This document shows positions 1 to 32,000 of a stretch of 32,000 bases of DNA, piece by piece. Source of the stretch: Candidatus Hermodarchaeota archaeon (GTDB taxonomy: Archaea > Asgardarchaeota > Heimdallarchaeia > Hodarchaeales > Hodarchaeaceae); assembly GCA_048886185.1 (NCBI GenBank), contig JBHLKY010000004.1, forward strand, positions 150,001 to 182,000, read 5' to 3'. A program made the position numbers and the translations under genes. The stretch's first letter is position 1, and the number at the start of each line of letters is the position of its first letter. The notes under the pieces are model-generated. The model worked only from the letters and a program-made list of their open reading frames with translations, had not been told where the DNA came from and searched no databases.

Positions 1-3000
1 TTACCATAATTTGGATCTGAAGATATAAGTTCAACCCGAATAAAATTCAAAATAGGAGATTCTTGGGCTTCCCAGATATCAATTCCATGACCATGTCCAA
101 TTATTAATTCTAAACATCCATCGAAATCACTATCACTTGTTGCTAGAGTATTAACCCGAGTACTCATGGGTGGAAAATCGTAGATGGTATGAATATTACC
201 AAATTCAGATTGGAGAGCTAAAAGAAATCCTGTATTTTTCTCGACAAAGGCCTTCTCTTTCTCCCATTCACAGATGTAATAAACTGAAGCAGATCCTGCG
301 ACATCATTCCAGCCCCCTTGAGCTTCTGGATAGGTACAATAAGGATAAACTCCATACGTTCCACCGTACATCCATACATGATCCTGATTGGCATAGTTAT
401 TGGGATTTGGACAAAGCCAATTTGAATAGGTAAAGGGTTCCCCCGTAACCCATTGCCACTGTCCTTCAACAAGCTCATCAGTCAATCCAATCCAAAATTG
501 ATCCACATCAGCTGCTAGATTCGCTACAAACTCATTTTCTTCTAGATCAGCTATTGTGACTAAATGGCCTCCTAAGCTTTCGCAGAGAGCTTTAGCTTCA
601 CTCCAAGTCTTTGCCTCAGTAAAAAGTTTATACTCATTACCCTTGAAAAAAATCCCACCATGAGTAGAAAAGCTCTGATTAATTCCACCTATCCATAATT
701 CGGTTGCGTGGTCTTGATTTATATCAGCGAAAAGAATTGTTTGAATATCAAGAGTAGGGTGAAATTTGGGATTTCCAGGTTGGTCATAGAAACCTGTACC
801 ACTGATGGATTGAAAACTTTCCAACCAACCAATTTCTGGATCCCAGCGAAGTAAGAATAACTGTCTACCGGCACCAAGTGCAATCATACTTCCACGTCCA
901 TCAAAATCAGGAGTAATCGCTAAAGCTGAAAATTGGGTTGTATCGTAATCTAGCACCATATTTCTATAATCTATCTCAAAAATTAGTTTAAATTCGTCGT
1001 TGAAACCTGTTGCTTCAAAAATATATACTTGAAGGCCTGCTGTGATGATAAATTCTTCATTTCCATTACCATTATAATCAAAACCTGCTGTGAGTAGATT
1101 ACCATGGTCGTAGATTGTCCTTTGAAATGTACCTGATACTCCAGGAAACTCTTGGAATGCATAGGGTGAAAAGTTTGTTATTTCAGTATGATTGAGGTCA
1201 TGAGTCTTAAAGGCACGTTTATATGTATTTTCAATTAAGTGTTCGAAGACATAGACATTATTATCGTAGTCACTAACGATGATTTCAGCATCAGTGTCAC
1301 CGTCCAAACTGTAACTCGTGGTTAATGTTAATGTCCAATCCTCAACCTCTTTAAGGTTGGACCATGATTTAACCATTGCATAGCCAAAATTAATGGCATT
1401 TGGAGGAGATTGTTTTAAATTTACTTCTAATTTTAATAATTCTGGATTTGTCCCAATAATATACGAGTTTTGTTGATCTGTCTCAGCATGAAGTTCTCTT
1501 AAGTAGTTCTGATCCCCATTCCAAACCCAAATGGATTCTGCGGAGTTTTCACTCGAATTTGAAGGGATAATGACTCCAGAAGTGAAATTATTAAATCGTA
1601 AAGATCCATCAGTAGTTGGGTTTTTCATCAAATAGGCATTTCTAACCCACAGAGGATCTGTTGGAGAACCATGATTTTCAAAAAAGTCCATACCATACCG
1701 TAACTCCCCAGAACCTCGTCCATATGAATATGCGATGTCATAATCATCATCATGATCGTAATCCCAAGCATTAGGTGAAAAAATGGGATTAACAGAAGCT
1801 CGCTCATTTAATTCTTGGAAAAATTCGAAATCAGATTTAAACTGTGGACTAGCTGTAGTTCCAATATTCCACAAGAGAGCTAAGCGACCATTCGATAGAA
1901 TTATGTCATCTAGCATGTCATTATCAATGTCTACAATGGTAGCTGAAGGATAGGTGGTGGACTCAGCAAGAAAATTATACAAATGGCCATCAATGTCCGT
2001 TAGAATTTCTGAAAATTCATATTGATCAGTTTCCCAATTCCATTTCCATATCCCAGGTAGAAGTGATGAATCATAAGCAGTTGGTCTTCTAAAAGGTTCT
2101 GGATACCAAGGGAATACAATAACCTCTTCTTTTAGGTTTCCTTGATCGAAATCACCGAAAGCGAGAGTAAGTAGTCTACCTGCGTACTGTGGATAACTTT
2201 CAATAAGATCTGTGGCGGGGTAGGCAGCAGGATTAAGAAATCCTCCATTAAAACTTTCATAGATCAGGATATTATTTGTAGAGTCAATTCGTGTAACCAG
2301 AAGTTCTGATCCCGAAGTATCTGCGACATCAGCAATACTCAAGTGATGTAAATTTGTAAGAGATGTAGAGGTTCCAGCATCAAATTCTTTTGTTTCATCT
2401 TTAATATATCTCCATGAAGGAATTAGGGATTTTTTAGGTGTTCCTTGAATACTCCAAATGGTTTCTCCAAGGTTGAAATAAGCATCTGTATAAGAATCCC
2501 AGTCTTGAGTATAAGCTGATAGCGTTATTCCAAAACTATCTGCTGGAATCTCGGTTAAAATTGCTTCACGGGTTCGATATTTTCTATAATAAGTTATATT
2601 ATTTAATTCACGATGAAAAGCAAGAAGTCGACCATCGGATCCACCGAAAACTAGTTTTTTGGTGGCTTCAGCTTCATTATATGAGAGTGATAATGTGTCA
2701 ATTGTAACAGAGGTTGCAATTGTTAAGGGTCTTGCGACAAACGGAAACACAACCGCGTCGACTCTACGTTCTTTAAATTCACTCGATGTGGTTAGTGTGA
2801 TACGAATATATTGCGCTGACATCATCTTTTTCTTAGCAAATAGTGGATCAACATCAATTGCTAATCCCTTTCCAGCCCCCATTGTCCAGATATCATTGTT
2901 ATCAACTTGGTGCCAATCCATGAGGTTGTTCCCAAAAGATACATTCCATTCATCTGTTCGGATTATGGTTTCAGAATCATCGAAGATAATGTATATATCA

Positions 3001-4859
3001 GGATCAGGATTGCCATTGGATGCTAATTCCTCTCCTACTCCTAGGTTCCAAGTACCCGTAGCGTTCCTGTGACTGTTATTTACACTGAAAACCGTGAATT
3101 TATTTTCCCATGCCTCCCATTCACAAACATACGCCATTCTCATGTTATAAATATCATTCCATTTACCATCAGTACGCATATGTCCATAATCTTCATAACC
3201 ACCATAATTGTTGGGTTCGCCTGTGTTCCAATTAGTATAGTCAATACCCCTGACACAAGATTCGCCTGTTATCCATTGATCCCAATTTCCTTCTTCCAAT
3301 GCATCTGAAAAACCAAGCCAAATGTACCTGGGTCCTGCTAAATTATGAACGAAAGTGTTCTCTCCGGCACTAGTTATGGTCACTAAATGTCCCCCACGAG
3401 CCTCACAATCCGCTTTTGCCTCTTCCCAAGTTTTCGCATCAGTTATTAACAAGTATTCATGTTCATTGTATTGAGTTCCCCCATGATAACTGAGTGGGGC
3501 ACCTGTAACAGCAGAATTACTAAAAATGTCAAGAGAATTTTGCGTGTCAAAATCCCACGGTTCTGGATACTTGTTTCCATAAATATCTTGAGTAAAGACT
3601 TGCCAGTTCATTTCTTTACTCCGAATCATCCAATCAGCAAAATTATCTAGGGGGTAAGCTCCTTGTATTTGCCAATCTTCAAAATCTTGAATCAGCTGCT
3701 CCAAATAGAAATCTCGCTCTTCTGTATAGTGTAATCCCCACGCACCTTGTCCATATGCGAGAATAATTGCATCAGTAGGATGGGTTAAAACTCCATTAGT
3801 GGTTATAACCTCATCCAATTCACCTGTAACAATTTGACCAATGGGATTCCAAATTGGTTGATAGAGGCCACTAATATTCCATATAAGACGATAGTTATTA
3901 TCATTGGGAAACGGAAATTCAATACCTTGAGGAGATAATACCACTCCATCATTTTCAAAGATATAAATTGATCCCGAAAGTGTTCCAACAATTATATCTG
4001 GTAAACCATTCTCATTAAAATCCCCTACACCGAGTGATTGGATTTTTTCATCCATTTCTGTTGAATTCCATCGTTCAGTAAGCTCTATCCAATGTTCAAC
4101 ATCAAACGGATAACCAGAGTGATCAGTATATTCAAACACATGGATCTTTTTATCCCACGAACCCACAACTAAATCTTGTATTCCATCTAGGTCTAGATCA
4201 TAAAATTCAACAGATGTAGCTTGGAAAAAATTACCCGAATTCCATACAAAATCAAAACGATTTTCAAGATTTGCTATTGGATCATAGATGTGTGCTTGTT
4301 CAAAGAGGTAAACACTACCATCCGAACACGCTGCAGCAATCTCTATTAAATTATTGTTATCAGAATCACCAAAGGCTACATCATAGACATCACGAGTTAT
4401 GATTCCTGATCCTGCTTCCCAAACTTTGATGTATTGTCGTTCATCACTATTCCACCGATAAATATGTAGCTCTGTATCAAGGAGATATCCTCCTCCAATT
4501 ACTAGAAATTCTCCGTCGTCGGAAACTTTCGCTACATGAATAGCAGCTCTAGATAACCAAGGTGTCCAAACCTGTTGGTACGTATTGTCATTATCTCGGA
4601 GTTTTCCCAACACATTATATTCAGGGGAGGGAATTACTTCTTCTTGTGGATTAATACCGAGATCTTCATACACCTTTTGAAAGGGATCATTCGTTTTTGG
4701 TGTTACCCTCTCCTTCAATTGAGGGATTTCATATTTCTCACTTTGGCTAAAGCTATTTAGTTCAATCATTTCGTTAATATGCATACTTCCGCATATGAAT
4801 ATTATTGATACTAATAATACAATACTTTTTCTACCTATTTTATCTAGCTGATTGCTCAT
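1..4859 (-). CDS. Giant secreted FG-GAP beta-propeller protein with two inserted C-type lectin domains and a galactose-binding-like jelly roll; paralogue of 8046..17513; 3'-truncated by the window edge (at least 1619 aa)
   Basis: Manual translation of the minus strand from ATG 4859 (MSNQLDKIGRKSIVLLVSIIFICGS..., N-terminal hydrophobic segment) stays open to position 3. It is absent from the ORF track, presumably because no stop lies in the window. It has repeated D-x-[DN]-x-[DN]-G..[DE]-hydrophobic motifs (DLDLDGIQDL, DFNENGLPDI, DIDNDMLDDI, DYDHDDDYDI, DYNGNGNEEF, DSDFDGCLEL). It is colinear with the 3155-aa protein: 25 of 44 residues are identical in the block YQQVWTPWL...YRWN vs YQKVWEPWL...YRWN, and SWDKKIHVFEYTDHSGYPF matches AWDKKVHVYEYTNHSGYPF. 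Confidence 0.9.
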   Translation of the reverse strand, partial: MSNQLDKIGRKSIVLLVSIIFICGSMHINEMIELNSFSQSEKYEIPQLKERVTPKTNDPFQKVYEDLGINPQEEVIPSPEYNVLGKLRDNDNTYQQVWTPWLSRAAIHVAKVSDDGEFLVIGGGYLLDTELHIYRWNSDERQYIKVWEAGSGIITRDVYDVAFGDSDNNNLIEIAAACSDGSVYLFEQAHIYDPIANLENRFDFVWNSGNFFQATSVEFYDLDLDGIQDLVVGSWDKKIHVFEYTDHSGYPFDVEHWIELTERWNSTEMDEKIQSLGVGDFNENGLPDIIVGTLSGSIYIFENDGVVLSPQGIEFPFPNDNNYRLIWNISGLYQPIWNPIGQIVTGELDEVITTNGVLTHPTDAIILAYGQGAWGLHYTEERDFYLEQLIQDFEDWQIQGAYPLDNFADWMIRSKEMNWQVFTQDIYGNKYPEPWDFDTQNSLDIFSNSAVTGAPLSYHGGTQYNEHEYLLITDAKTWEEAKADCEARGGHLVTITSAGENTFVHNLAGPRYIWLGFSDALEEGNWDQWITGESCVRGIDYTNWNTGEPNNYGGYEDYGHMRTDGKWNDIYNMRMAYVCEWEAWENKFTVFSVNNSHRNATGTWNLGVGEELASNGNPDPDIYIIFDDSETIIRTDEWNVSFGNNLMDWHQVDNNDIWTMGAGKGLAIDVDPLFAKKKMMSAQYIRITLTTSSEFKERRVDAVVFPFVARPLTIATSVTIDTLSLSYNEAEATKKLVFGGSDGRLLAFHRELNNITYYRKYRTREAILTEIPADSFGITLSAYTQDWDSYTDAYFNLGETIWSIQGTPKKSLIPSWRYIKDETKEFDAGTSTSLTNLHHLSIADVADTSGSELLVTRIDSTNNILIYESFNGGFLNPAAYPATDLIESYPQYAGRLLTLAFGDFDQGNLKEEVIVFPWYPEPFRRPTAYDSSLLPGIWKWNWETDQYEFSEILTDIDGHLYNFLAESTTYPSATIVDIDNDMLDDIILSNGRLALLWNIGTTASPQFKSDFEFFQELNERASVNPIFSPNAWDYDHDDDYDIAYSYGRGSGELRYGMDFFENHGSPTDPLWVRNAYLMKNPTTDGSLRFNNFTSGVIIPSNSSENSAESIWVWNGDQNYLRELHAETDQQNSYIIGTNPELLKLEVNLKQSPPNAINFGYAMVKSWSNLKEVEDWTLTLTTSYSLDGDTDAEIIVSDYDNNVYVFEHLIENTYKRAFKTHDLNHTEITNFSPYAFQEFPGVSGTFQRTIYDHGNLLTAGFDYNGNGNEEFIITAGLQVYIFEATGFNDEFKLIFEIDYRNMVLDYDTTQFSALAITPDFDGRGSMIALGAGRQLFLLRWDPEIGWLESFQSISGTGFYDQPGNPKFHPTLDIQTILFADINQDHATELWIGGINQSFSTHGGIFFKGNEYKLFTEAKTWSEAKALCESLGGHLVTIADLEENEFVANLAADVDQFWIGLTDELVEGQWQWVTGEPFTYSNWLCPNPNNYANQDHVWMYGGTYGVYPYCTYPEAQGGWNDVAGSASVYYICEWEKEKAFVEKNTGFLLALQSEFGNIHTIYDFPPMSTRVNTLATSDSDFDGCLELIIGHGHGIDIWEAQESPILNFIRVELISSDPNYG
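261..659 (-). other. C-type lectin domain 2 (within CDS 1..4859)
   Basis: Translation GNEYKLFTEAKTWSEAKALCESLGGHLVTIADLEENEFV...FWIGLTD...EGQWQWVTGEPFTYSNW...NPNN...WND...YICEW. Canonical CTLD hallmarks: W-x-x-A-x-x-x-C, GGHLVTI, WIGL, WND (303..311) and terminal CE. Confidence 0.9.
3114..3482 (-). other. C-type lectin domain 1 with EPN and WND motifs (within CDS 1..4859)
   Basis: Translation HEYLLITDAKTWEEAKADCEARGGHLVTITSAGENTFV...YIWLGFSDALEEGNWDQWITGE...YTNWNTGEPNNYGGYEDY...GKWNDI...YVCEW. EPN at 3210..3218 and WND at 3153..3161. Confidence 0.9.
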
Positions 4860-5228
4860 AGTGATTATCAACTCATTTTAATAAATATTAGGAAAAAAGA
4901 GAAAGAATACCGTGATGTAAGTAAGAAAAATTCATTTAGATTCTCTTTACGTATTTTAATCAAAATAAGGGTAGATTATCTCATGAAATTAATTAATCTT
5001 TGGTAAAAGAAAAGGAATTAATCAAAAATTAATATAAATTCTATTTATTCTATTTTTATTTTTAAATCTCATACCCATCAAAGAGAATCATTATTGGCAA
5101 GGAGTTAAATCATTTACTCAATTTAGTATTTTCCTATTAAAGTCATTAGATAATGAAAAGAAATACTGCTTTTAATTCAAATATGAGTAATGAAGTAAAT
5201 AGATATCTTTATTTTATAATAGTCCCGT

Positions 5229-5251
5229 GAAAGAAAAAGTGAGGGGAAGAG
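5229..5251 (-). terminator. Possible archaeal-type pyrimidine/oligo(U) terminator after the PPC-repeat gene
   Basis: The minus strand reads CTCTTCCCCTCACTTTTTCTTTC about 20 nt after the tandem stops TAA TGA (5274..5269), followed by a very AT-rich spacer. Confidence 0.35.
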
Positions 5252-5271
5252 CTGGTCACTAGAATGAATCA

Positions 5272-8046
5272 TTAACTTGGTGGTTTCTTTAATTCACCTG
5301 AACCATCTTCAGGTTTTCTCCCAAATCGATCTCTGAACTTTTCACCTACTTTATCTAGGGCACCAGTCTTCTTTGCTCCATATAACCCAAGTGCAGTTCC
5401 TCCTCCAATGATAATTCCACCTACAACTAGTGGAATTAACACTTGAAAAGGATTAAAGGGTTTACTTAACGTTTTACCTTCTGAAAACGGTGGGACGGTT
5501 TTTAGAGGGATCAATACATCTTCTGGGCCAATCGTAACATTCAAAAAATAACTTGTACTCAGCCCAGTGGTCATAGACACACGGAAGTAGATATCAGTTC
5601 CAGCAAATAGTTTTGTATATGAAGAATTTATCGGAAAAGGACCAGTCTGTTCCGCATAACCCGCATCACGAGTACTAAGATCAATAATGCTACCATTCAT
5701 ACTTAAGAGTTCGAGATCAAGATTCTCTGATCCAAATTGCGATATTTTAACTATTATCGCGAGTCCAGCTGGAACATTAACAACAAAGTAGTCATCATCC
5801 TTGATTCGGATCCGAGGAGTTTCAGTGTGTATAACGGTTTCTCGCGATACTTTATCAACTACAGATAATCGCGTAGCTTCATCAAATACGTCATTATCTT
5901 CATGGGGATCATCTGTTTCCAGAATATCAATAGTCAGGTTATACAAATTTGATGTTTCACCTTCTAAGAGGTTACAAAAAATGAAATATTTTCCACTTTC
6001 ACTGGCATTGTAGGAGAGTGATTCATTAAATACAGTCATACTGTGAGCGACTCTTGGATATACTTGGCCATCATGATCTGCATATAATTCCAGATCTATA
6101 TCATTGGTCTCAACTTGGATATAATCCAAGAAAATGGTGATTATATCATTTTCATGAAGATAGACATAATAATAATCATAAAAATCGTCTCGGAGGATGA
6201 GATTCGGGTAACTACCTTCTGCAATAGGTGCAGCGGTACCAAAATCATTATTTGGTAGTTCAAATTCATCATCAAAGACAACAATATTCACACTTATATT
6301 GTAGTCAACTGCTTCATAACCTAGCGGTCCAATTCCAAGAATGAGAAGAAGATACACATCAGCTTTGATAATGTTATAAACAATCGTTTCAGAACTAGAA
6401 CCTGACAATGTGGAATCATCAAGGATGTTTCCATCTCCATCTGCAAAAAACATATTTAGATCCGCAAGAGATCCGTTAAAATCAATTCTTACTGAAATCC
6501 AATCCCCTGGGAGTAAATAAATACGGAACCAATCCATATTACCCTCCAATGAGATGAGACCACCATCAGGGTTCGTTTCTGTGGGTTTATATTCTTTGGA
6601 TTGAGTTGGTAAAGGATATGCAGATAAGATTCCATCATTTGGTTCAGCCCAGTCGTCTTTTCCTTGGATCACAACAGTTAGATTATAGTAGAGTGGATAT
6701 GGATTATTGGAAGATACTAGGAAATAAAAAGATGAATCGGTTTGCGCTCGGTAAGGTCCGAATCGAAGGCCATCCAGAATTGGTTTGGCATCATCAAGAA
6801 TTGATGATATCGATTGATTTTCATATACTGTAAGATTTAGGTCTAATCTACTGCCACCAGCTAATTTAATGGGTTTCCAGTGAACATCTACTCGTAATCT
6901 TTCAAACTTTTCTACATCGACACGATACCAATCAGGATTATCTTCTGACACTACCATTCCTGGAAGAGTTCCAAAGTTTTTAATCTCTGTTGGGTTCGTG
7001 TTTACATTATTTGGCCCACTTTCAACTTCATATGCGTCTTCAAGCGAAATATCTAGAGTATAATAATTTGTGGCTCCTACTCGATCATAAATTCTCAAAT
7101 AGTACCATCTACTAAACTTAATGCTAGTAATAAAAGTTTCTACGTGTGAAGAAAGATCATTATCTTCCTGAAAGTCACAAATTGTTTTGTTTGGGAAGTA
7201 AAGGTATATATCTGGCCCAGAGTATTGCAATTGGCCAGTTTCTAGGTAGGAACTTACAGTAATATTCAGTTCAGAACCTGCGTACAATAAGATCCAATAA
7301 GTGTCGTTTTCTCTATAAAGTGTGTTCGTATCCGATGAAAGACGAAGCTTCTCGTAATGTCCAGGTACAATTTCATCATCACTCCCACCTGGGTAGTCTG
7401 GAGGTGTGAGATCATCAAAATTATCATTCGGATAAAGTTTTTCCCATTTATCCTCATAAACCAAACTCATGTTGTATGTAGTCGAATATTGAATTGATTC
7501 GTATCCAAGCGGATTAGAACATGTTACATTAAAAATAAATGTGTCTGACGCATTAACTAATAGAGGCCCAATTGCTTCTTCGTAACCAGAGTAATTACTG
7601 TATCCAAGCAGATAAGGATCTGTACCATTCTCCGCCCAAAGATATAAGTCTAAATCAGCATAGAATGGTGGATCTAAATCTATAAAAGGATGAGTTCCAA
7701 ATCCAGTGGCATTCCAGACATTTGTTTGGTTGAACGATATTGAAACCGAGAAGTAAGATCCTGGTGTAACATCAAATGAGTAATAATCGGGATCAGATGA
7801 ACTAACATTCAATAAAGCGGGGTTTGTAATTGATTCACTCCCTAAAGGATAGGCCCATGCCCATATATTATTATTTGGAAATGCATGGTCATCTTCCCAA
7901 ACATTATCATCATTTGTTGGAGGTAAGGCGGTAGCACTTCGAAAGATTTGAGGGGTCATGAGAATTGGGATCATTAAAGCCATGAAACAGAATTGAAATA
8001 TCAGGAATTTGCTTAGAGAATATTTAATGAAACTATTTGTCTTCAT
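5272..8046 (-). CDS. Membrane-anchored surface protein with six PPC-like (pre-peptidase C-terminal) beta-sandwich repeats, 924 aa
   Basis: The true start is probably ATG 8046, not 8082: AGGAGG lies at 8060..8055 with an 8-nt spacer, and the ATG overlaps the upstream TAA (TAATG). Signal peptide ends ...FRSATA|LP. Six repeats of the form D-x-x-E-x-N...D-[YW]-[YF]-x-[VI]...D-L-D-L-x-L-Y...E-x-I...Y-N-x-[ST]-V. C-terminal TM (VLIPLVVGGIIIGGGTALGLYGA) then a basic tail. No protease catalytic domain seen. Confidence 0.85.
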   Translation of the reverse strand: MKTNSFIKYSLSKFLIFQFCFMALMIPILMTPQIFRSATALPPTNDDNVWEDDHAFPNNNIWAWAYPLGSESITNPALLNVSSSDPDYYSFDVTPGSYFSVSISFNQTNVWNATGFGTHPFIDLDPPFYADLDLYLWAENGTDPYLLGYSNYSGYEEAIGPLLVNASDTFIFNVTCSNPLGYESIQYSTTYNMSLVYEDKWEKLYPNDNFDDLTPPDYPGGSDDEIVPGHYEKLRLSSDTNTLYRENDTYWILLYAGSELNITVSSYLETGQLQYSGPDIYLYFPNKTICDFQEDNDLSSHVETFITSIKFSRWYYLRIYDRVGATNYYTLDISLEDAYEVESGPNNVNTNPTEIKNFGTLPGMVVSEDNPDWYRVDVEKFERLRVDVHWKPIKLAGGSRLDLNLTVYENQSISSILDDAKPILDGLRFGPYRAQTDSSFYFLVSSNNPYPLYYNLTVVIQGKDDWAEPNDGILSAYPLPTQSKEYKPTETNPDGGLISLEGNMDWFRIYLLPGDWISVRIDFNGSLADLNMFFADGDGNILDDSTLSGSSSETIVYNIIKADVYLLLILGIGPLGYEAVDYNISVNIVVFDDEFELPNNDFGTAAPIAEGSYPNLILRDDFYDYYYVYLHENDIITIFLDYIQVETNDIDLELYADHDGQVYPRVAHSMTVFNESLSYNASESGKYFIFCNLLEGETSNLYNLTIDILETDDPHEDNDVFDEATRLSVVDKVSRETVIHTETPRIRIKDDDYFVVNVPAGLAIIVKISQFGSENLDLELLSMNGSIIDLSTRDAGYAEQTGPFPINSSYTKLFAGTDIYFRVSMTTGLSTSYFLNVTIGPEDVLIPLKTVPPFSEGKTLSKPFNPFQVLIPLVVGGIIIGGGTALGLYGAKKTGALDKVGEKFRDRFGRKPEDGSGELKKPPS

Positions 8047-24846: not shown

Positions 24847-27800
24847 ATGAACCTTTCTCTCAGAAAAGCTATTGGTGTCAGAAAGCGACAAATTGGGCTC
24901 ATTTTTAGCTTAGCTAGAAGGAATGCAACCCGTTCTCCATATCGAAGCTCTTTATTAATACTTGGAATTGTATTGACAGTTGCGTTAGAAACTGGAATTG
25001 TTATTTCTGTGGATACTCTTTATGATGATTTTATATTTAGTAATCGGAACAATAATTATACCGATATATCCGTAATCCCTAAGACCTGGGTTAATTTATC
25101 CTCTCTTCGATCAATTACCAGAGAAGTTGCTTCTGTAGCAGGTGTAACTAAAGCAAGCCCTGTTTATACCATCCCTGTTAATCGGCTTGTTAAGGAAGAA
25201 TTCCCTGAATCAAATATTTTAATTTACGGTCTTGATCCTAAAACACATCCAGATTTTTCTAATATCAATATAACTACAGGAAAACGTGAAGTTAAAGGAA
25301 ATACTGTTATTATTTCTAAGAAACTTTTCATTGATTCTGGTCTTCGTGTTGGTGATGTTGTTGATCTAGCTGAAATTGGTACTGATTTCTTAGAACCAAA
25401 TTTATTGACATCCACTAAATTCAAGATAGGAGGAGTAATGAATGACCCTTCTTTCTTTGGAAATAATGTTGGATACCTTTTCATTATGATCAATATCCAA
25501 ACATTATATGAAATTTTTCCAAAAGCTGATCGTGCCTCGATCCTGAGAGGGAAAATCGATGTTCATGTTGAAAATTTATTAGATATTAAAAAAATCAACG
25601 AAAACATTAAAGATAAGGTTGGCCTTGGATCCTATGTATGGACAGAAAAAGATATTTCTGAAATCAGAGTCACTGGGATTCGAGCATATCAAACAGCTAT
25701 GAATTTGGTAATTCTAGCTTCTTTTGTAGTTGAATTTTTATTTATCACAAATATTTTAGCTATAGCAATTCGAGATCGTTCGCAAGAATTTGGTGTTTTA
25801 CGGGCTGTAGGTAGTAGTTCTAGACAGCTTATAGCTATTATCTCAATAGAGATTTTAATTTATTCAATAATTGGGAGTTTCTTGGGTATCGTGGGTGGTA
25901 TTGCGTTCGCAAGTGTTATTGTTGGTCTTATGCAGTCTTTTTACCCAACTTTGGAATTTCAGGCTCTTTCATTATATCCCTCTTCTCTCCTTGCTACTTT
26001 ATCATCTGGTATCGTTGTTGCTTTAATTTCTGGTTTATATCCTATTATCATTGCTCTATCTATGCCCGTTGTTCGAAATATTCATTCAGAAGCACGCGCT
26101 GGGAGATCATCTACTATTTTATTAGAAAATTGGAAACAAACAGTGATTATGGGAGTTCTTCTTGCTTTAACTGGATTTATCATGCAATTTTTTATTGGTC
26201 CTTCACGATTTCTTGATTTTGAAATACTATCTTTGCATTTTTTCATTATCTTACTAATTTTTATTGGAACAGTATTAGTAGAAATCGGATTTCTCATCTT
26301 CCTACCTAAAGTTGCTTTTATTTTTTTATCACCTATCTTTGGTGAAATAACCCGTACTATCTCCATGCGAAATATAGCCAGAGAGTTCAGGAAATCTCTT
26401 TTCACAATTATAACTACTGCCTTGGCATTAACATTTATCATTGTTGTCGGATTAGTGTCCGCTGCAGTTATCACTGGTTTTCCAGTCTTTTTTCAGGAGG
26501 AATGGGGAAAGATTGACTTAGTAGCTGAGGCCAGAGATGATCAACTTCCACATTTAAATTTTAGTTCATCACTTGAGGATAATTTACCCATAGCTAGAGC
26601 ATCTTTCATTCAAGAAGAGCGGACAGAAATTCAAGGAGTTTCGAGCTATGTCTTTGGAGTTGATCCTCTACAGTACTCCTTTTTTGCAGAGGATGTTATC
26701 GATTCGATAAATAATGGTAATTCCTCATCTTTTCTTTCACGTACTCAGCTGGAGGGAGAGAATGTCACATTTGGTCTTATCTCAAGACTCCTTTTCGAAA
26801 GAATCCTTTCACCAGTGGGTTCACAAATTACTGTTAAAATTGCTAATAACAATTCTGTAAATGTAACCATTGCTGCTGTTATTAAACCAAATATCTTTTT
26901 AGGTAATGGAGAATACCTTTATATATCTGCCGAGAATTTTAAAAACTTTTTCGAAACAACTCAAGCTAAATGGTTTGTATGTGATGTAGAAGGGAATGTT
27001 CGAACTGTTCAAACGATGATAGAAGTTACTTTTCCTCAATTCAAAGAAGTTATTGGTATAGATTTCTTTGTGAAAAGAATAGAGAGGACTTTAATCTTTC
27101 AATCTGCTATTTTCCAACTCTTATTCATAGAATCATTCATTCTTGCCGCTATTGCACAATTTGTATGCATTCTTGTGTCTACTCTTAGGATGGAGCGAGA
27201 AATGGGTATTATGAGAGCGATTGGACTGTCTAGAAGGGGTGTTTTTGATATTTTTATGTCCGAGTCGGTTGCACTAGGCTTGGCTGCACTTGTTATTGGC
27301 TTACTTGATGGATTGCTAGGTTCACTTTTGTTAGCTTGGTATATAAACCTTTCAATTCCTATCGATGTCAGATTTCCTTTAGATAGGATAAATACATGGG
27401 TACTCTTCACCTTTATAATAACATTAATTAGTACAATATTACCTTCTTATCGTTCCAGTAGGAAAAGTATTGTCAATACAATCGCAAGAAGACCCTTTAG
27501 AAAAAGATATACTGATGAACCATCTCTAATACAGGCTTTTTATCCGTTATGGCAATCCTCAGATACAAAAGCAACAGTTGCTACCTCAGAACAACAACGA
27601 AAATCAGAAATTGCTTTAGAAGAAATGAAAGCAGCATTATCCTATCCATCCACCTCATTATGGCGTTTTTTAAACAACCACCGACTTAGAATTCAGATAA
27701 TATTTATCATTTTACTTGTTATTGTTTCCATGATTACACTTTTAGATAGTTATGTGATCATTCGGGGTCTTTTACCTTTTGATTTCATATGGCGATTGTT

Positions 27801-28590
27801 TTTCTCTTTCATGCCTTTTCAAGATACATTTAGCGAATACTACCCAATTACTTTCCTTTTTATTAATCCTATTTTTCTTATGGTTGGTTTAACTGCTGTT
27901 AGCCCGATATCATATTATCTTGTCCATGAGTCTCCGCGTGCTAATCCTATTGTTTTTTTTGCTAAAAGTTTCTTCTTGGGAATTGTGGGAGTTATCACTT
28001 TAATAATCACACCATTTCTTATATCAATTTTCCTTATTTTGATAATCGCACCTTTATTATTGTTTCTTGGTGGTATTTCTTTTCAGAACATTAGTGGTGA
28101 GATCATTTTTTATTTTACATTAACTATTGTAACTCTTGGTCTTGAATTAGTTTTGTTTCAGAGACTATGGGTTATACTTGTTTTTCATGGATTGGGATTC
28201 GAGCTTGATTTTAGCCAAAAAATTTTTTGGCTAGAAAAAATAATTTCAAGGGGTCAGATTAAATTCTTTGGTCTTATCTTTCTTCAAATCATAATCCAAT
28301 TTATCTTATTCTTATTTTCTCAATCAATACCAACAGCAATTTTAGCTGAGGAATCTGTCCAATTTCCATTTAGTATTCCATTTCTATTCTCATTATTTCC
28401 TGTAAATCCTGTGGTATTCATAGTTTTAGCAACTTTTGAGATCGGATTCTTCCTCTTGCTTATAATATATCAAATTGTTCAATCTCAAAACCATATAAAT
28501 CAAATTTATCCAGAGATTCTTGCTGAGCGTATTGAAAAACGATCTATTTTTTCAGCTATACCTGAAAAGAGAGATAAATTTGGATATTGA
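24847..28590 (+). CDS. FtsX/MacB-family (type VII) ABC transporter permease with two FtsX-type modules and an additional C-terminal multi-TM domain, 1247 aa
   Basis: RSSLLILGIVLTVAL first TM; a large extracellular domain; RDRSQEFGVLRAVGSS and RMEREMGIMRAIGLSR (the R-x-x-E-x-G-x-x-RA-x-G coupling motifs); the module ends YPIIIALSMPVV and LPSYRSSRKSIV; then about 300 further, mostly hydrophobic, residues. Confidence 0.88.
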   Translation: MNLSLRKAIGVRKRQIGLIFSLARRNATRSPYRSSLLILGIVLTVALETGIVISVDTLYDDFIFSNRNNNYTDISVIPKTWVNLSSLRSITREVASVAGVTKASPVYTIPVNRLVKEEFPESNILIYGLDPKTHPDFSNINITTGKREVKGNTVIISKKLFIDSGLRVGDVVDLAEIGTDFLEPNLLTSTKFKIGGVMNDPSFFGNNVGYLFIMINIQTLYEIFPKADRASILRGKIDVHVENLLDIKKINENIKDKVGLGSYVWTEKDISEIRVTGIRAYQTAMNLVILASFVVEFLFITNILAIAIRDRSQEFGVLRAVGSSSRQLIAIISIEILIYSIIGSFLGIVGGIAFASVIVGLMQSFYPTLEFQALSLYPSSLLATLSSGIVVALISGLYPIIIALSMPVVRNIHSEARAGRSSTILLENWKQTVIMGVLLALTGFIMQFFIGPSRFLDFEILSLHFFIILLIFIGTVLVEIGFLIFLPKVAFIFLSPIFGEITRTISMRNIAREFRKSLFTIITTALALTFIIVVGLVSAAVITGFPVFFQEEWGKIDLVAEARDDQLPHLNFSSSLEDNLPIARASFIQEERTEIQGVSSYVFGVDPLQYSFFAEDVIDSINNGNSSSFLSRTQLEGENVTFGLISRLLFERILSPVGSQITVKIANNNSVNVTIAAVIKPNIFLGNGEYLYISAENFKNFFETTQAKWFVCDVEGNVRTVQTMIEVTFPQFKEVIGIDFFVKRIERTLIFQSAIFQLLFIESFILAAIAQFVCILVSTLRMEREMGIMRAIGLSRRGVFDIFMSESVALGLAALVIGLLDGLLGSLLLAWYINLSIPIDVRFPLDRINTWVLFTFIITLISTILPSYRSSRKSIVNTIARRPFRKRYTDEPSLIQAFYPLWQSSDTKATVATSEQQRKSEIALEEMKAALSYPSTSLWRFLNNHRLRIQIIFIILLVIVSMITLLDSYVIIRGLLPFDFIWRLFFSFMPFQDTFSEYYPITFLFINPIFLMVGLTAVSPISYYLVHESPRANPIVFFAKSFFLGIVGVITLIITPFLISIFLILIIAPLLLFLGGISFQNISGEIIFYFTLTIVTLGLELVLFQRLWVILVFHGLGFELDFSQKIFWLEKIISRGQIKFFGLIFLQIIIQFILFLFSQSIPTAILAEESVQFPFSIPFLFSLFPVNPVVFIVLATFEIGFFLLLIIYQIVQSQNHINQIYPEILAERIEKRSIFSAIPEKRDKFGY

Positions 28591-29026: not shown

Positions 29027-30103
29027 TTAGCTAGATTCTCGGGCAGCATGTCGGATTACATCAGCAGGATCCCTACCAATATCAAGGGGGGGTCTTGGGA
29101 ACCAACATGATGCAAAATGTCCTTTCTCGACTTCTTCTAAGGGAGGCTCTTGGTCTTTACATTTCTTTTGGACATATTTACATCGTGATGCAAAAAGACA
29201 ACCTGGAGGTGGATTAATTGGAGTACCAGGTTCTCCTGGTAGGATTTCACGCTTTCGCATACTAGTAGGATCAGGAGTAGGTACCGCGGAGATCAATGCT
29301 CTACTGTAGGGATGTACTGCTCCGTGGATTATTTGTTTAATGGTACCTTTTTCCATAACCTTCCCAAGATACATGATAGCTATCTTATCACCGATATAGC
29401 TAGCAACAGAAAGATCATGAGTGATATAGATATAAGCAATGTGGAATTTTCGTCTAATACTCTCTAAGAGATTCAAGATCTCAGACCTTATTGAAACATC
29501 CAGCATTGAAACAGGTTCATCGGCTACTACAAAAGTAGGATCAACGACAATTGCTCGAGCTATAGCAACTCGTTGACGTTGGCCCCCACTGAGTTCATGG
29601 GGGTAACGAAACGTGAACTCTTCTGCCGGAACGAGTTGTACAGCCTCGAAAGCTCTCACAACACGTTCTTCTTCATCAGATGGAGATTCTGCGAGATTAT
29701 TTAGACGTATAGGTTCAGCTACGGTATCATATAGACTTAAACGGGGATTTAAAGAAGAGTAAGGGTCTTGAAAAATAGTCTGAACCTTTGCTCTAAGCCT
29801 ACGAAGTTGTGTTCTACTAATTTTCGCGAGATCTTGCCCCCCGATTGTTACAGACCCACTAGGAACTCGGCCATCCGTTTTGGGTTTTAATAATCCAATT
29901 AGTAATTTACCAATTGTGGTTTTCCCACAACCCGATTCTCCAGCGAGACAATACATATCTTCTGGATAGATGTCAAGATCTACTCCATCCACAGCTTTAA
30001 GCCAAATTTCTCCTCTCCGAAGTTGAGAGAAAAAGCCAGTACTTACTGGAAACCATTTCCTAAGGCCTCGACATGAAACCAAGGGCTTACCGTTTATACT
30101 CAT
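29027..30103 (-). CDS. dppF: Oligopeptide/dipeptide ABC transporter ATP-binding protein (DppF/OppF family)
   Basis: LKAVDGV, Walker A GESGCGKTT, Q-loop QTIFQDPYSSLNPR, signature YPHELSGGQRQR, Walker B VVADEP, H-loop ITHDL, HPYS, and the C-terminal Cys cluster GCLFASRC...KKC...ASC. Confidence 0.93.
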   Translation of the reverse strand: MSINGKPLVSCRGLRKWFPVSTGFFSQLRRGEIWLKAVDGVDLDIYPEDMYCLAGESGCGKTTIGKLLIGLLKPKTDGRVPSGSVTIGGQDLAKISRTQLRRLRAKVQTIFQDPYSSLNPRLSLYDTVAEPIRLNNLAESPSDEEERVVRAFEAVQLVPAEEFTFRYPHELSGGQRQRVAIARAIVVDPTFVVADEPVSMLDVSIRSEILNLLESIRRKFHIAYIYITHDLSVASYIGDKIAIMYLGKVMEKGTIKQIIHGAVHPYSRALISAVPTPDPTSMRKREILPGEPGTPINPPPGCLFASRCKYVQKKCKDQEPPLEEVEKGHFASCWFPRPPLDIGRDPADVIRHAARESS

Positions 30104-30105
30104 GG

Positions 30106-31104
30106 CTATACCTTCCTACCAATACTATAACCTTCGCTTGTTATTCTTCCTGCCGCAAGATGGCATGCTACAAAGTGATTATCCTTCAATTCCTCAGCTG
30201 GCGGATCATCAGTTCGACACATGCTTTGAGCATAATCACATCTCGGATGAAAACGACAACCAGAAGGAGGATCCAATAGATTTGGTGGTTGACCAGGAAT
30301 CGAAGCCAATGTTTGGTTGTGAGATTTTTCAATTGATGGAATCGAAGCGATTAATCCTTGAGAATAAGGATGCATTGGTCGTTCAAAGATTTCAACTACT
30401 GTACCAGATTCAACTATTTTTCCGGCATACATGATTATAACCTTTTCACAGGTCTCTGCTACAACAGAAAGATCATGCGTAATAAGTAAAAGAGTAATAT
30501 TTAGCTCCTTTACAAGCAATCGGAGAAGATCCATTATCTGAGCCTGTACTGTGACGTCTAAGGCTGTTGTAGGTTCATCAGCGATAATAAATTTAGGATT
30601 ACAAGCCAATGCCATCACTATCATTGAACGCTGCTTCATTCCTCCACTAAACTCGAAAGGATAATGATCCACTCGACCAGGATCAATCCCAACCATCTTA
30701 AAAAGCTCTCGTACTCTTTTTAGAGCTTCTTTTTTTGAAATTTCCATATCATGTTGCATAATGGCTTCAGTAATTTGATCCTTGACCTTAATGATGGGAT
30801 TGAGGGCGTTCATCGCACCCTGAAAGACCATGGACATCTGTTTCCAGCGGAATTTTCTCATCTCCTCCTCAGAAAATTCCACTAAATCTTGATCATCATA
30901 GTAGATGTGACCTCCCATGATCTGCCCTGGGAAAGGTAACATCCGGAGGAGAGCAAAAGCAACGGTGCTCTTACCGCATCCTGATTCGCCAACGAGGCCA
31001 ACTGAGTCACCTTGTCCAATAGTAAAGGAGATATCTTCAACAGCTCGACAATCTCCTCGTTTCATACAATAATATACTTTAAGATCCTCAACGCGTAATG
31101 ACAT
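30106..31104 (-). CDS. dppD: Oligopeptide/dipeptide ABC transporter ATP-binding protein (DppD/OppD family)
   Basis: Walker A GESGCGKS, SMVFQGAMNALNP, YPFEFSGGMKQR, IIADEPTTALDV, ITHDL, HPYS, and GCRFHPRC...MC...ACH. The start is probably ATG 31104, with GGTGA (31117..31113) at an 8-nt spacer; the track's 31116 is a GTG inside that RBS. Confidence 0.93.
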   Translation of the reverse strand: MSLRVEDLKVYYCMKRGDCRAVEDISFTIGQGDSVGLVGESGCGKSTVAFALLRMLPFPGQIMGGHIYYDDQDLVEFSEEEMRKFRWKQMSMVFQGAMNALNPIIKVKDQITEAIMQHDMEISKKEALKRVRELFKMVGIDPGRVDHYPFEFSGGMKQRSMIVMALACNPKFIIADEPTTALDVTVQAQIMDLLRLLVKELNITLLLITHDLSVVAETCEKVIIMYAGKIVESGTVVEIFERPMHPYSQGLIASIPSIEKSHNQTLASIPGQPPNLLDPPSGCRFHPRCDYAQSMCRTDDPPAEELKDNHFVACHLAAGRITSEGYSIGRKV

Positions 31105-31116
31105 TTCTGTTTTCAC

Positions 31117-32000
31117 CTATAGTTTTCGTTGTCGTGGATTCATTGCTTTATCTGTAGCATATCCGATGAATACAAAACCCATCGATAGCAGTACAATCAT
31201 AAGCCCAGGTGGCACAACAAACCACCATGCCATATTTTGTAGTGCTGCGGCATTGTAACCCGCTTGAAGCATACGTCCCCATGATACAAGGCCTTGTGGA
31301 GTTAAGGCGAGAAAACTCAAAGCTGCTTCTGAAAGAATTGCTCCAGAAACGCCAGTAGCGAGTTGGACAAAGACTAAAGTTAAGACATTTGGAAATACAT
31401 GCTTGAAGATAAGATAAACATCGCCTGCACCAGCTGCTTTTGCGGCTTCAACATAAGACTTCTCCTTCTCAACAAGGACTTGAGACCGTATGACCCGAGA
31501 GACGCCAGGCCATGCAAACAGTGCAATAATAATTGTTGTAATTTCTAGACTGGGGCTGAAAAGAGCAGCTAGAATCATCATAATTGGCAACCCAGGCATA
31601 ATTAAGAAAAAGTCGACGATTCGCATTAGAATCTCATCGATATAACCACCAAAATACCCTGATACCAAGCCAACCATAAGTCCTACGAAAACACCAATAA
31701 AAGTCGCAACTAGGCCAATGAATAATGAAACCTGAGCTCCCCACATTAACTGGGACATTACATCTTGACCCGCATCAGTAGTTCCTAATAAACCATAATA
31801 GCTAGGATGAACAATGATCCTAACATTGTCAAACCAAGCAATAGCAGTCCCATTCTCATTCTGGGGGACTGGGGGATTATAAGGATTTATTATCGTATTG
31901 GACCACTCTAATCCAAATTCAATTTCTACAATATTATCTTTCTGAAATGCATAATGATATCCAAGAAGAGAGATATTTCGTGTATATGTTTTCCAAATGT
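31117..32000 (-). CDS. dppC: Peptide ABC transporter permease DppC/OppC, 5'-truncated by the window edge, with an extracellular insert
   Basis: The frame is open from 31998 (IWKTYTRNISLLGYHY...AWFDNVRIIVHPSYYGLLGTTDAGQDVMSQLMWGA), so the track's start at 31758 is internal. LLGTxxxGxDxxSxL, the EAA motif YVEAAKAAGA, HVFPNV, ILSEAALSFL and WGRML are all typical of OppC. Confidence 0.9.
   Translation of the reverse strand, partial: IWKTYTRNISLLGYHYAFQKDNIVEIEFGLEWSNTIINPYNPPVPQNENGTAIAWFDNVRIIVHPSYYGLLGTTDAGQDVMSQLMWGAQVSLFIGLVATFIGVFVGLMVGLVSGYFGGYIDEILMRIVDFFLIMPGLPIMMILAALFSPSLEITTIIIALFAWPGVSRVIRSQVLVEKEKSYVEAAKAAGAGDVYLIFKHVFPNVLTLVFVQLATGVSGAILSEAALSFLALTPQGLVSWGRMLQAGYNAAALQNMAWWFVVPPGLMIVLLSMGFVFIGYATDKAMNPRQRKL

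Follow-up and report, generated by a model that had tools for sequence, protein, structure and literature searches.

Genes A and B of the Hodarchaeales (Asgard) genome G000 are full-length, old paralogues, and only the first of them contains C-type lectin domains (CTLDs). It is fairly probable that an ancient paralogue scaffold has here received CTLD cassettes which were inserted, multiplied, deleted and recombined, and which likely serve as a glycan-binding display. Architecture, insertion sites, gain, loss and duplication of cassettes and their mosaic history can be read directly from the comparisons described below. Hodarchaeales are among the closest archaeal relatives of eukaryotes. The recognition and holding of partner cells by Asgard archaea is central to ideas on eukaryote origin and their surface proteins are little known; our searches of the literature on Asgard C-type lectins, integrin, FG-GAP, VCBS and lamin tail domains yielded no description of this protein family or its CTLDs.

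Genes A and B encode ancient paralogues on a common scaffold

In the window, i.e. the whole stretch of 32,000 nucleotides that was analysed, gene A resides on the minus strand at 3..4859 (residues 1-1619 of 3158; ORF listing and translation, Pfam Lectin_C, FG-GAP_3 and LTD). This copy is truncated by the window edge. The whole ORF of 3158 aa spans G000:C4:145386-154859, with the part outside the window (G000:C4:145386-150000) located before the window start. Gene B (8046..17513, minus strand) encodes a CTLD-free paralogue of 3155 aa, which is built on the scaffold of A and has a TM helix at its C-terminus. A first-pass annotation of this DNA had described the two proteins as colinear, and three aligned blocks at 24-39% identity bear this out (39% for A4-411/B6-407, 24% for A588-917/B516-807 and 38% for A955-1427/B905-1386). 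It had also aligned the protein encoded at 1..4859 with roughly the N-terminal 1450 aa of B; the colinearity holds, but the size of ~1620 aa is that of the truncated copy, and the complete gene A parallels gene B as far as the C-terminal membrane anchor. In the scaffold tree, the g1 A-type proteins cluster with A-like proteins of family f5 (SH-aLRT 100), separate from the B types. The A/B duplication is older than the split of two families.

In both proteins, an N-terminal signal or anchor is followed by several propellers and, at the C-terminus, by a membrane helix. They belong to an Asgard-archaeal family of 2600-4900 aa, the scaffold of which is present from Lokiarchaeia to Heimdallarchaeia, such that the notion of a conserved chassis is borne out across Asgard archaea. 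From their sequences, the family members are predicted to be cell-surface proteins in which FG-GAP-type beta-propellers are strung together and combined with a beta-sandwich and a sialidase-like segment; the membrane helix is followed by a short basic tail. Assignment of A and B to the FG-GAP/VCBS beta-propellers is based on profile matches (FG-GAP_3 with 126.5 bits and FG-GAP with 66.9 bits in B, FG-GAP_3 with 50.2 bits in A), on the blades in AlphaFold2 (AF2) models and on Foldseek, which against the PDB returned generic WD40, DDB1-like and other propellers only, with low TM scores. The best-conserved part of the scaffold is the N-terminal propeller of A (~residues 75-420; 3600..4637, minus strand), which is 39% identical to B, is modelled with repeated strand blades at a pLDDT of ~90 (AF2 model maefddd8161de) and has Foldseek matches that are all propellers. 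A 'jelly-roll'-like beta-sandwich follows CTLD1 (A598-720; 2700..3068, minus strand; AF2 strands at pLDDT 85-94). It has no Pfam match, aligns to B at 24% identity and is thus common to both paralogues.

The later parts diverge in content. An extra Lamin Tail Domain (LTD) is found in A (residues 1705-1814). For B, the first-pass annotation had listed a jelly roll and a G/S/T-rich stretch as further inserts. The latter exists as a low-complexity segment missing from A (B1847-1976; 11586..11975, minus strand), with 46% G/S/T vs 24% for the entire protein and a length that differs among B orthologues. The jelly roll was not recovered: B1390-1860 gave a weak BNR_2 match (E 0.003) and one Asp-box only.

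Two CTLD cassettes sit in a linker and in a blade hairpin

The two complete C-type lectin domains reported for A are confirmed by Pfam Lectin_C (PF00059; whole-protein E 9e-36), with 60.9 bits for CTLD1 and 79.1 bits for CTLD2 in a genome-wide profile search (cut-off 22.6; model positions 2-106 of 107). CTLD1 (A455-597; 3069..3497, minus strand) occupies site 454 and carries an EPN...E-D...WND sugar/Ca motif (alpha type), while CTLD2 (A1396-1544; 228..674, minus strand) occupies site 1395 and carries NPN...Q-D...WND together with a loop longer by ~14 aa (beta type). Across 48 cassettes, the WIGL-type motif and the outer Cys pair were found in 44; most hold only two Cys, the inner pair generally being missing.

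Both CTLDs had been placed in propeller loops. This is correct for CTLD2, which interrupts the beta-hairpin turn joining two neighbouring strands within one propeller blade (AF2 flanking strands, model 798-806 and 953-963). CTLD1, on the other hand, lies in the linker joining the N-terminal propeller region to the beta-sandwich, and alignment shows it to be cleanly missing from f5 A-like and B-type proteins. As had been noted, B has short linkers where A holds CTLDs: the counterpart of site 1 (B484-520; 15954..16064, minus strand) comprises 24 aa between the anchors NTSMAI and ENYTTFN, and the counterpart of site 2 (B1347-1372; 13398..13475, minus strand) is an unbroken blade hairpin of 8-10 residues vs ~150 aa in A. 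The same turn measures 7-9 aa in orthologues without CTLD2 at site 1395. A further site of A, 1046, is empty and consists of a short blade hairpin turn (A1044-1056; 1692..1730, minus strand; alignment and AF2 strands, model 452-459 and 464-473). It is filled by a CTLD in G003/P0014, P0015 and P0020, with loop lengths of 6 vs 131-148 aa. Additional insertion sites at ~1373, 1706, 1868 and 2821 bring the number to seven.

Loop lengths were measured with anchor HMMs in 72 homologues of the family that span the Asgard archaea. Cassette-free loops comprise 4-48 aa at site 454, 1-13 aa at site 1046 and 7-25 aa at site 1395, and cassette-bearing loops, restricted to the CTLD-bearing A clade, comprise 142-556, 131-148 and 140-155 aa, respectively. 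The idea that these loops accept interchangeable binding modules is therefore correct insofar as a whole binding domain with clean boundaries is accommodated, but variety of modules was not encountered, the only type present in these loops among the 72 homologues being the CTLD.

In the AF2 models, sites 1395 and 1046 fall between adjacent strands of one blade with confident flanks (pLDDT 77-92). The CTLDs themselves have low pLDDT (26-69 for CTLD1, 23-54 for CTLD2) because few alignment rows include them. Of the AlphaFold check that had been proposed, the blade flanks of site 1395 thus come out as expected, while the model does not depict the CTLDs projecting from intact propellers; flanking strands and empty-site orthologues nevertheless suggest that they do so.

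Gain, multiplication and loss of cassettes

Lectin_C domains occur in ten of the 22 genomes of the host genus (G000 included), in no further genus of the class within a set of 83 genomes, and in 12 of 400 genomes sampled from the phylum. No B-type orthologue examined contains a CTLD. The difference between A and B is accordingly a late gain of CTLDs in the A lineage of one genus and not the result of module exchange. Loop content within the A lineage is by no means invariant, invariance being what the annotation had named as speaking against its reading: A-type orthologues hold 0-6 CTLDs spread over the seven sites. Tandem CTLD arrays are found at site 1, and P0018-P0020 carry tandem arrays. 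In P0012, the pre-cassette linker and the first cassette residue are kept and the rest is deleted. The near relative P0013 (flanks 87-89% identical) retains the entire cassette, and judged by this sequence scar P0012 represents a precise cassette deletion.

Searches in the Protein Atlas and protein databases revealed CTLDs to be widespread in bacteria, with ~40-50% identity in many of them, and to occur in some other archaea, with no clear donor; the GC content of the cassettes (0.41-0.42 vs 0.37) is slightly elevated and does not indicate one either. Because of such relatives in many bacteria and the occurrence in only 12 of 400 Asgard genomes, the CTLDs look like a lateral acquisition rather than a trait passed on to eukaryotes. 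The best PDB sequence matches of CTLD1 are metazoan CTLDs (PLA2R, DEC-205, mannose receptor; E 5e-31 to 6e-26). Since similar CTLDs occur in many bacteria, this likeness is no evidence of common descent with animals.

Most orthologues stem from contigs of MAGs, and CTLD arrays in tandem resemble repeats, so that variable cassette content might in principle arise from metagenome assembly or binning, by chimeric contigs or collapsed or expanded repeats. This is extremely improbable, as the two-cassette arrangement is also present in the single-contig chromosome record CP070695.1 (G010) and in three other assemblies. A 42-kb contig from a sediment run, possibly the source of this DNA, spans the entire stretch without any difference, and both cassettes are also represented in estuary contigs (94-99% identity). 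Sediment as well as estuary metagenomes hence contain near-identical strains; no joints were seen across the cassettes in these contigs. Furthermore, DNA identity between cassettes of the same protein does not exceed 72%, a divergence too great for assembler collapse or misjoin, and all reading frames are open.

The ligand-binding part is exchanged between cassettes

The first-pass annotation regarded whole domains as exchangeable cassettes. Exchange is indeed apparent, but its clearest unit is the ligand-binding two-thirds and not the domain in its entirety. Where the flanks of orthologues agree at 87-92%, the initial ~40 residues of the CTLD track the site and the ligand-binding ~85 residues swap between sites and lineages. 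G014 and P0011 have 92% identical flanks but only 61% identical site-1 CTLDs, and for G010 and P0011 the corresponding values are 88% for the flanks and only 58% for the site-2 CTLDs. Identity falls directly after a GGHLVTI motif and recovers at CEWE. The N-part of the G017 site-2 cassette is 89% identical to that of the G010 site-2 cassette. In its C-part, the G017 cassette matches the G000 site-1 cassette at 84% identity and has a 4-residue indel in common with it; the two group together in the C-part tree (support 99/95). The G014 site-1 C-part is nearest to P0016, the scaffold of which is only 71% identical.

Incongruence between scaffold and CTLD trees, put forward earlier as a check, was found in AU tests. 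For the C-part, site-2 monophyly was rejected (p 1.4e-4), as was a grouping of G014_s1 with its scaffold sisters (p 2e-8), both p values being optimistic because the partition was chosen after seeing the identity pattern. On the whole domain, grouping of G010_s2 with G014_s2 was rejected (p 0.0014), while site-1 and site-2 monophyly (p 0.26 and 0.19) and the grouping of G010_s1 with G014_s1 (p 0.21) were not. The latter tests, the N-terminal 40 residues that track the site, the filling of site 454 in nearly all g1 A orthologues, compatible with a single gain, and the one clear loss in P0012 would also suit a strictly vertical history, in which an ancestor with cassettes underwent differential loss and the ligand-binding half evolved fast under positive selection without any exchange. 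We consider this quite unlikely. It demands an ancestor with cassettes at seven sites, yet loops are short in all outgroups, and it is at odds with the C-parts of G017 site 2 and G014 site 1 and with the rejection of vertical groupings by the C-part AU tests.

A diversity-generating retroelement (DGR) mutating the CTLDs would be a further option, as it is the C-terminal portion of a CLec-type fold that varies. This is the usual position of DGR variable regions. A blastn search of the entire genome with both cassettes, however, detected no template-like copy, the matches being limited to other CTLD genes (71-76% over 71-121 bases), and the differences consist of indels and whole-segment replacements and not of adenine-specific substitutions. 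We therefore reject the involvement of a DGR as exceedingly improbable. Recent copy-paste of cassettes was likewise rejected: among all cassette pairs compared, none exceeds 80% nucleotide identity, so that no recent event, donor or DNA-level breakpoint was caught, and no conserved synonymous-site blocks were seen at the cassette ends.

For the history of the cassettes, we propose the following scenario. In one Hodarchaeales genus, the A lineage would have acquired a canonical CTLD, a domain rare in Asgard archaea. The N- and C-terminal ends of the CTLD fold are adjacent to each other, and for this reason the domain may be tolerated in a tight turn or linker, leaving the host fold undisturbed. 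Copies of the cassette then presumably reached at least seven permissive sites, with tandem amplification at the first of these and later deletion in some lineages. The ligand-binding part, flanked by the strongly conserved GGHLVTI and CEWE motifs, has probably been replaced by recombination between cassettes, across sites of one gene and across lineages, with gene conversion as the most likely mechanism. The outcome would be a fixed scaffold showing a species-specific array of lectin heads with differing sugar-site motifs.

Sugar-site motifs suggest glycan binding

Ca-site-2 ligands of sugar-binding CTLDs are EPN or QPD, an acidic residue and WND. CTLD1 contains the full set (EPN, E-D, WND), and CTLD2 is a variant with NPN, Q-D, WND and a longer loop. 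Complete EPN or QPD motifs with acidic residue and WND occur in about half of the 48 cassettes, and others feature NPN with a long loop or degenerate sites (TPS/WAD, GPN/WDG, EPN/LNN). The cassettes may thus bind glycans, and the EPN, QPD and NPN motifs are suggestive of diversified ligand specificity. Many metazoan CTLDs bind proteins or minerals or serve only as spacers. The same could apply to the cassettes, the variation then being neutral or structural, and the missing inner disulfide, the degenerate sites and the departure of CTLD2 from EPN/E-D fit such a role. It is nonetheless rather unlikely in view of the many cassettes with intact sites and of the concentration of variation in the ligand-site half of the domain.

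If the cassettes do bind glycans, a likely role would be Ca-dependent attachment to glycans on partner cells, particles or matrix, and the A-type proteins would probably function in adhesion. One may go further and envisage a standing diversification of surface lectins in Hodarchaeales by segmental gene conversion at junction motifs, providing a species- or strain-specific glycan code for partner choice. This is a conceivable though doubtful extension; if true, its function would resemble that of receptor diversification by recombination in eukaryotes. The locus makes up a testable candidate for partner recognition by Asgard archaea, with a conserved giant scaffold that was turned into a lectin display platform in one genus and binding halves that are re-assorted. 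It also shows where, in nature, beta-propellers tolerate an insert, and it exemplifies recombination below the domain level in the CTLD fold; protein engineering can make use of both.

Comparison with known systems

In the adhesin Bap1, a propeller blade harbours an inserted beta-prism lectin. Bap1 and RbmC of Vibrio cholerae are paralogous biofilm adhesins with a conserved FG-GAP/VCBS-type beta-propeller in common and differing outward lectin modules (PMC10102183), and they resemble A and B in combining a constant propeller with variable lectin content. Bap1/RbmC are secreted matrix proteins of ~700-950 aa with a single eight-bladed propeller and beta-prism lectins, whereas A and B are membrane-anchored, have ~3150 aa and several propellers, and A carries CTLDs; they are not of the Bap1/RbmC type. 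Seven insertion sites, 0-6 copies and sub-domain exchange are undescribed for Bap1/RbmC. The design principle is common, the family different.

Integrin alpha chains are type I membrane proteins with an FG-GAP propeller, in which the ligand-binding alpha-I (vWFA) domain is inserted between blades, and paralogues with and without the insert exist. This parallels A and B, but thigh/calf legs and a GFFKR tail are lacking, the insert is a CTLD and not vWFA, and FG-GAP Pfam is the sole common sequence feature. Pfam scans of A and B gave no match to integrin-alpha leg families, the window contains no beta-subunit-like gene, and the tails are basic and unrelated. A/B is an analogue of integrin alpha, not a member.

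Mannose receptor, DEC-205 and PLA2R combine tandem CTLDs with differing sugar motifs in one membrane protein, as do P0018-P0020; there, however, the CTLDs are arranged as beads on a string, are not propeller inserts, and have both disulfides. DGR proteins with a C-type-lectin fold (Mtd, TvpA, archaeal DGR targets) are likewise prokaryotic surface proteins with a diversified ligand-binding CLec-type face. A differs from them by canonical Pfam Lectin_C domains, by the lack of a template repeat and by between-species diversity that stems from replaced segments and indels. Polymorphic toxin and adhesin loci, which diversify by recombination with cassettes (PMC3482391), have in common with A a constant chassis, exchangeable cassette-encoded parts and recombination at conserved junction motifs. 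In these loci, silent cassettes located downstream supply new C-terminal tips, whereas the cassettes of gene A are internal and all in frame, and a store of silent cassettes was not encountered.

Neighbouring genes and further modules

Between B and A, a membrane-anchored protein of 936 aa with a PPC (pre-peptidase C-terminal) domain is encoded (5272..8082, minus strand). Gene B is adjoined by a gene for a 2201-aa TSP3-repeat giant (17515..24120, minus strand), a paralogue (33% identity, full length) of a 2258-aa gene adjoining A outside the window. In more distant relatives, modules elsewhere in the proteins include extra LTDs, PA14/GLEYA, a ConA-like GH43_C2 domain and fused TSP3 repeats, and fusion proteins of propeller and TSP3 occur in other Asgard lineages.

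Scaffold and lectin inserts of genes A and B

Genes A and B encode giant FG-GAP multi-propeller paralogues that are colinear over their first ~1430 residues (39%, 24% and 38% identity in three blocks) and align weakly beyond. The first-pass annotation held that the two scaffolds differ by inserted C-type lectin domains (CTLDs, Pfam Lectin_C), and this is indeed so: A contains two CTLDs as well as one Lamin Tail Domain, and B has neither. The protein it had placed at 1..4859 is a fragment created by the window edge; with the DNA beyond added, gene A is a complete ORF of 3158 aa. Its junction for CTLD2 (site 1395 of A) is exact. For CTLD1 (site 454), the motifs it quoted are present in B, where the intervening linker measures 24 aa. 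A G/S/T-rich segment in the later part of B was found as described; the supposed jelly roll there was not confirmed, just a weak BNR_2 match and one Asp-box being present. Both proteins feature a hydrophobic N-terminal segment, a C-terminal hydrophobic helix plus basic tail and 34-36 N-glycosylation sequons each, which points at type I surface proteins. Residues 851-950 of A (window about 2010-2309, minus strand) form a second hypervariable patch that lacks a CTLD; identity is 27-49% to the proteins of genomes G010, G014, G003, G008 and G012 (flanks 60-85%) and stays at 65-88% for G017.

A and B are the only scaffold paralogues in the genome under study (G000), that of a Hodarchaeales-type Asgard archaeon. 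Homologues of the N-terminal propeller occur in 30 of the 83 genomes of the class, and 73 proteins of 1736-5527 aa match at E <= 1e-20, including records named Lokiarchaeum ossiferum, Thorarchaeota, Lokiarchaeota, Hermodarchaeota and Kariarchaeaceae; orthologues bear the NCBI name Hodarchaeales. In a maximum-likelihood tree (quick search) of the N-terminal ~1500 residues with CTLDs masked, the A-like proteins of family f5 form one clade with the A proteins of the host genus, ((G008,G012),(G003,((G010,G014),(G017,G000)))), and the B types of families f1, f2, f3 and f5 form a separate one. The A/B duplication therefore predates the split of f1 and f5.

Genome G017 harbors two A-type fragments in one bin (G017:C36, L069, and G017:C78, L032), 69-70% and 79-86% identical to A, whose site-1 cassettes are mutually closest relatives (80%); either A has a further paralogue in this genome or the bin mixes two strains. 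Another study's estuary metagenomes (window 1-4871, runs X5-X7) yielded contigs 94-99% identical to gene A with both CTLDs covered. The full stretch is present in four sediment runs, which may be the DNA's own source.

Distribution and insertion sites of the CTLD cassettes

A CTLD profile built from A and then iterated matched exclusively A-type proteins of the host genus; neither B types nor the f5 A-like proteins gave a match. Whole-genome searches detected Lectin_C in 10 of 22 genomes of the genus (G000 included); across the class (83 genomes) no other genus has it, and of 400 genomes sampled from the phylum 12 do. The sole other matches in the latter sample, G205:C236 and G261:C31 of another Asgard family (f20), measure 830-957 aa and contain two or three CTLDs in tandem.

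When the cassettes of 20 A-type orthologues were placed on A coordinates, seven insertion sites emerged. Site 454 holds one to four tandem copies; site 1046 is occupied in G003/P0014, P0015 and P0020, site ~1373 in P0020, site 1395 in G000, G010, G014, G017 and P0011, site 1706 in G012, site ~1868 in P0023 and P0024 and site ~2821 in P0023. With none (P0012, P0022) to six cassettes (P0020) per orthologue, domain content at the loops is not invariant, and the proposal of a scaffold diversified by insertion survives. The loops do accept inserts; the interchangeable binding modules envisaged for them come down to a single type, the CTLD. A-like relatives of other Hodarchaeales carry other carbohydrate-binding-type modules elsewhere on this scaffold, namely PA14/GLEYA near the C-terminus plus three Lamin Tail Domains in P0027 and a ConA-like GH43_C2 domain ahead of the first propeller in P0026.

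Loop lengths between anchor profiles, taken for the three best-sampled loops in 72 homologues, are short except in cassette carriers: 4-48 versus 142-556 aa at site 454, 1-13 versus 131-148 aa at site 1046 and 7-25 versus 140-155 aa at site 1395. In every case the cassette is the complete domain, with an HGG motif at one end and CEWE at the other. In P0012, whose flanks are 87-89% identical to those of P0013, the linker and a single residue, the first of the cassette, are all that is left; this is a precise secondary deletion. Complete B-type orthologues in the genus (3083-3181 aa) are free of cassettes.

AF2 models of the scaffold (37-38 family rows; pLDDT 71 and 76) are usable for the scaffold itself. 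They place site 1395 between strands 798-806 and 953-963 (model numbering) of one blade, with flanking blocks at pLDDT 77-92, and site 1046 between strands 452-459 and 464-473; site 454 is preceded by the N-terminal propeller region and followed by a well-predicted beta-sandwich. Both CTLDs are poorly predicted because few alignment rows contain them, and the picture of lectins probably projecting from intact propellers therefore draws on the site flanks and the orthologues with empty sites. Foldseek returned generic propeller and multi-propeller (DDB1-like) matches only.

CTLDs of the same genus also reside on ~1500-aa, 1329-aa and small proteins. The 1329-aa ORF (G008:C49, L078), located ~20 kb away from the A orthologue of that genome, has two CTLDs, one of which is of the beta type whose other members occupy site 1395 in G000, G014 and P0011 (support 100/99). 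This locus, distinct from the A gene, may have donated a cassette or received one.

Exchange between cassettes

Whole-domain CTLD identities track neither site nor scaffold. The whole-domain tree unites the site-2 (1395) cassettes of G000 and G014 with a CTLD from another gene of G008 (100/99). Less well supported (85/98) is a cluster in which the G017 site-2 cassette falls among the site-1 (454) cassettes from G000, G010 and G003. AU tests on this tree did not reject monophyly by site; a sister relationship of the site-2 cassettes of G010 and G014, which are scaffold sisters, was rejected (p 0.0014). At site 1, the cassettes of G014 and P0011 are 61% identical between flanks of 92%, and at site 2 those of G010 and P0011 58% between flanks of 88%.

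Along the domain, identity is high up to GGHLVTI, collapses with indels over the WIGL-EPN-WND part and is high again at CEWE. By nearest neighbour, the G017 site-2 cassette is a mosaic, its N-part (first ~40 residues) being 89% identical to G010 site 2 and its C-part (the ligand-binding ~85 residues) 84% to G000 site 1; in the G014 site-1 cassette the N-part is nearest to positional orthologues and the C-part to P0016. The C-part tree supports these groupings (99/95 and 95/90), and AU tests on the C-part, a partition chosen after the pattern had been seen, rejected grouping by position or by vertical descent (p 1.4e-4 and 2e-8). The histories of scaffold and CTLDs are incongruent. The signal is sub-domain: the exchanged unit is mainly the binding half of the CTLD and not the whole domain. 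No cassette pair exceeds 80% nucleotide identity, so none is recent, and the DNA of both cassettes found no DGR-type template in the whole genome.

Sugar-site motifs and origin of the CTLDs

CTLD1 exhibits WIGL, EPN, E-D and WND motifs, CTLD2 NPN, Q-D and WND with a longer loop. EPN/WND, the mannose-type signature, occurs in about half of the cassettes, and QPD, the galactose-type signature, in G003 site 1b and in a separate gene, G000:C16. Beta-type cassettes have NPN and a loop ~14 residues longer; the remaining ones have degenerate sugar-site motifs. These motifs fit cassettes that differ in specificity, and from them we infer a putative lectin function.

CTLD1 matches solved metazoan CTLDs (PLA2R, DEC-205, mannose receptor, DC-SIGN, MBP). 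In bacteria, CTLDs 40-50% identical are found in numerous proteins that also carry dockerin, ricin, CHAP or T9SS domains; for animal mannose receptors the value is 35-37%. The Atlas lists prokaryotic CTLD clusters, and neither protein nor Atlas searches yielded a nameable donor. Lateral acquisition by the host genus would be the simplest reading. The closest known design is that of Bap1/RbmC from Vibrio cholerae, which share a common propeller and differ in lectin modules (PMC10102183); the A/B family is likened to them in design and is not a member. Insertion of the integrin I-domain is a further analogue, again without membership.

Gene order

All large genes of window 1-24120 (the window being G000:C4:150001-182000) reside on the minus strand. 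Read in the direction of transcription, the first (17515-24120) encodes 2201 aa with bacterial TSP3 repeats; gene B (8046-17513; 3155 aa) comes second, a gene for a PPC-domain protein of 936 aa (5272-8082) third, and gene A, which begins at 4859 and continues past the window edge, last. Gene A is followed by genes for a 2258-aa TSP3-repeat protein and an 846-aa beta-helix/TPR protein. The 2201-aa and 2258-aa giants are paralogues (33% identity over full length), so the pairing of propeller giant and TSP3 giant occurs twice. Some relatives of 4300-4900 aa unite TSP3 repeats and propellers in one protein. Since such fusions exist in other Asgard lineages, the arrangement suggests that a propeller giant and its neighboring TSP3 giant work together in the same apparatus.

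Propeller-TSP3 fusions are found in Thorarchaeota and other Asgard lineages (P0041, P0043, P0045, P0072, P0077). The TSP3 giants (window 17515-24120 and L005:3703-10476, both minus strand; ~2200 aa) are helical in their N-terminal half and also contain a hydrophobic beta region and numerous TSP3 repeats. A gene divergent to those of the surface proteins (window 24847-28590, plus strand) encodes a 1247-aa polytopic membrane protein, FtsX/MacB-type ABC permease in appearance, whose C-terminus is extended by a long hydrophobic segment. An Opp/Dpp-type permease gene (31117-31998, minus strand), its product extended in the N-terminal region, adjoins two oligopeptide ABC ATPase genes (29027-31116).
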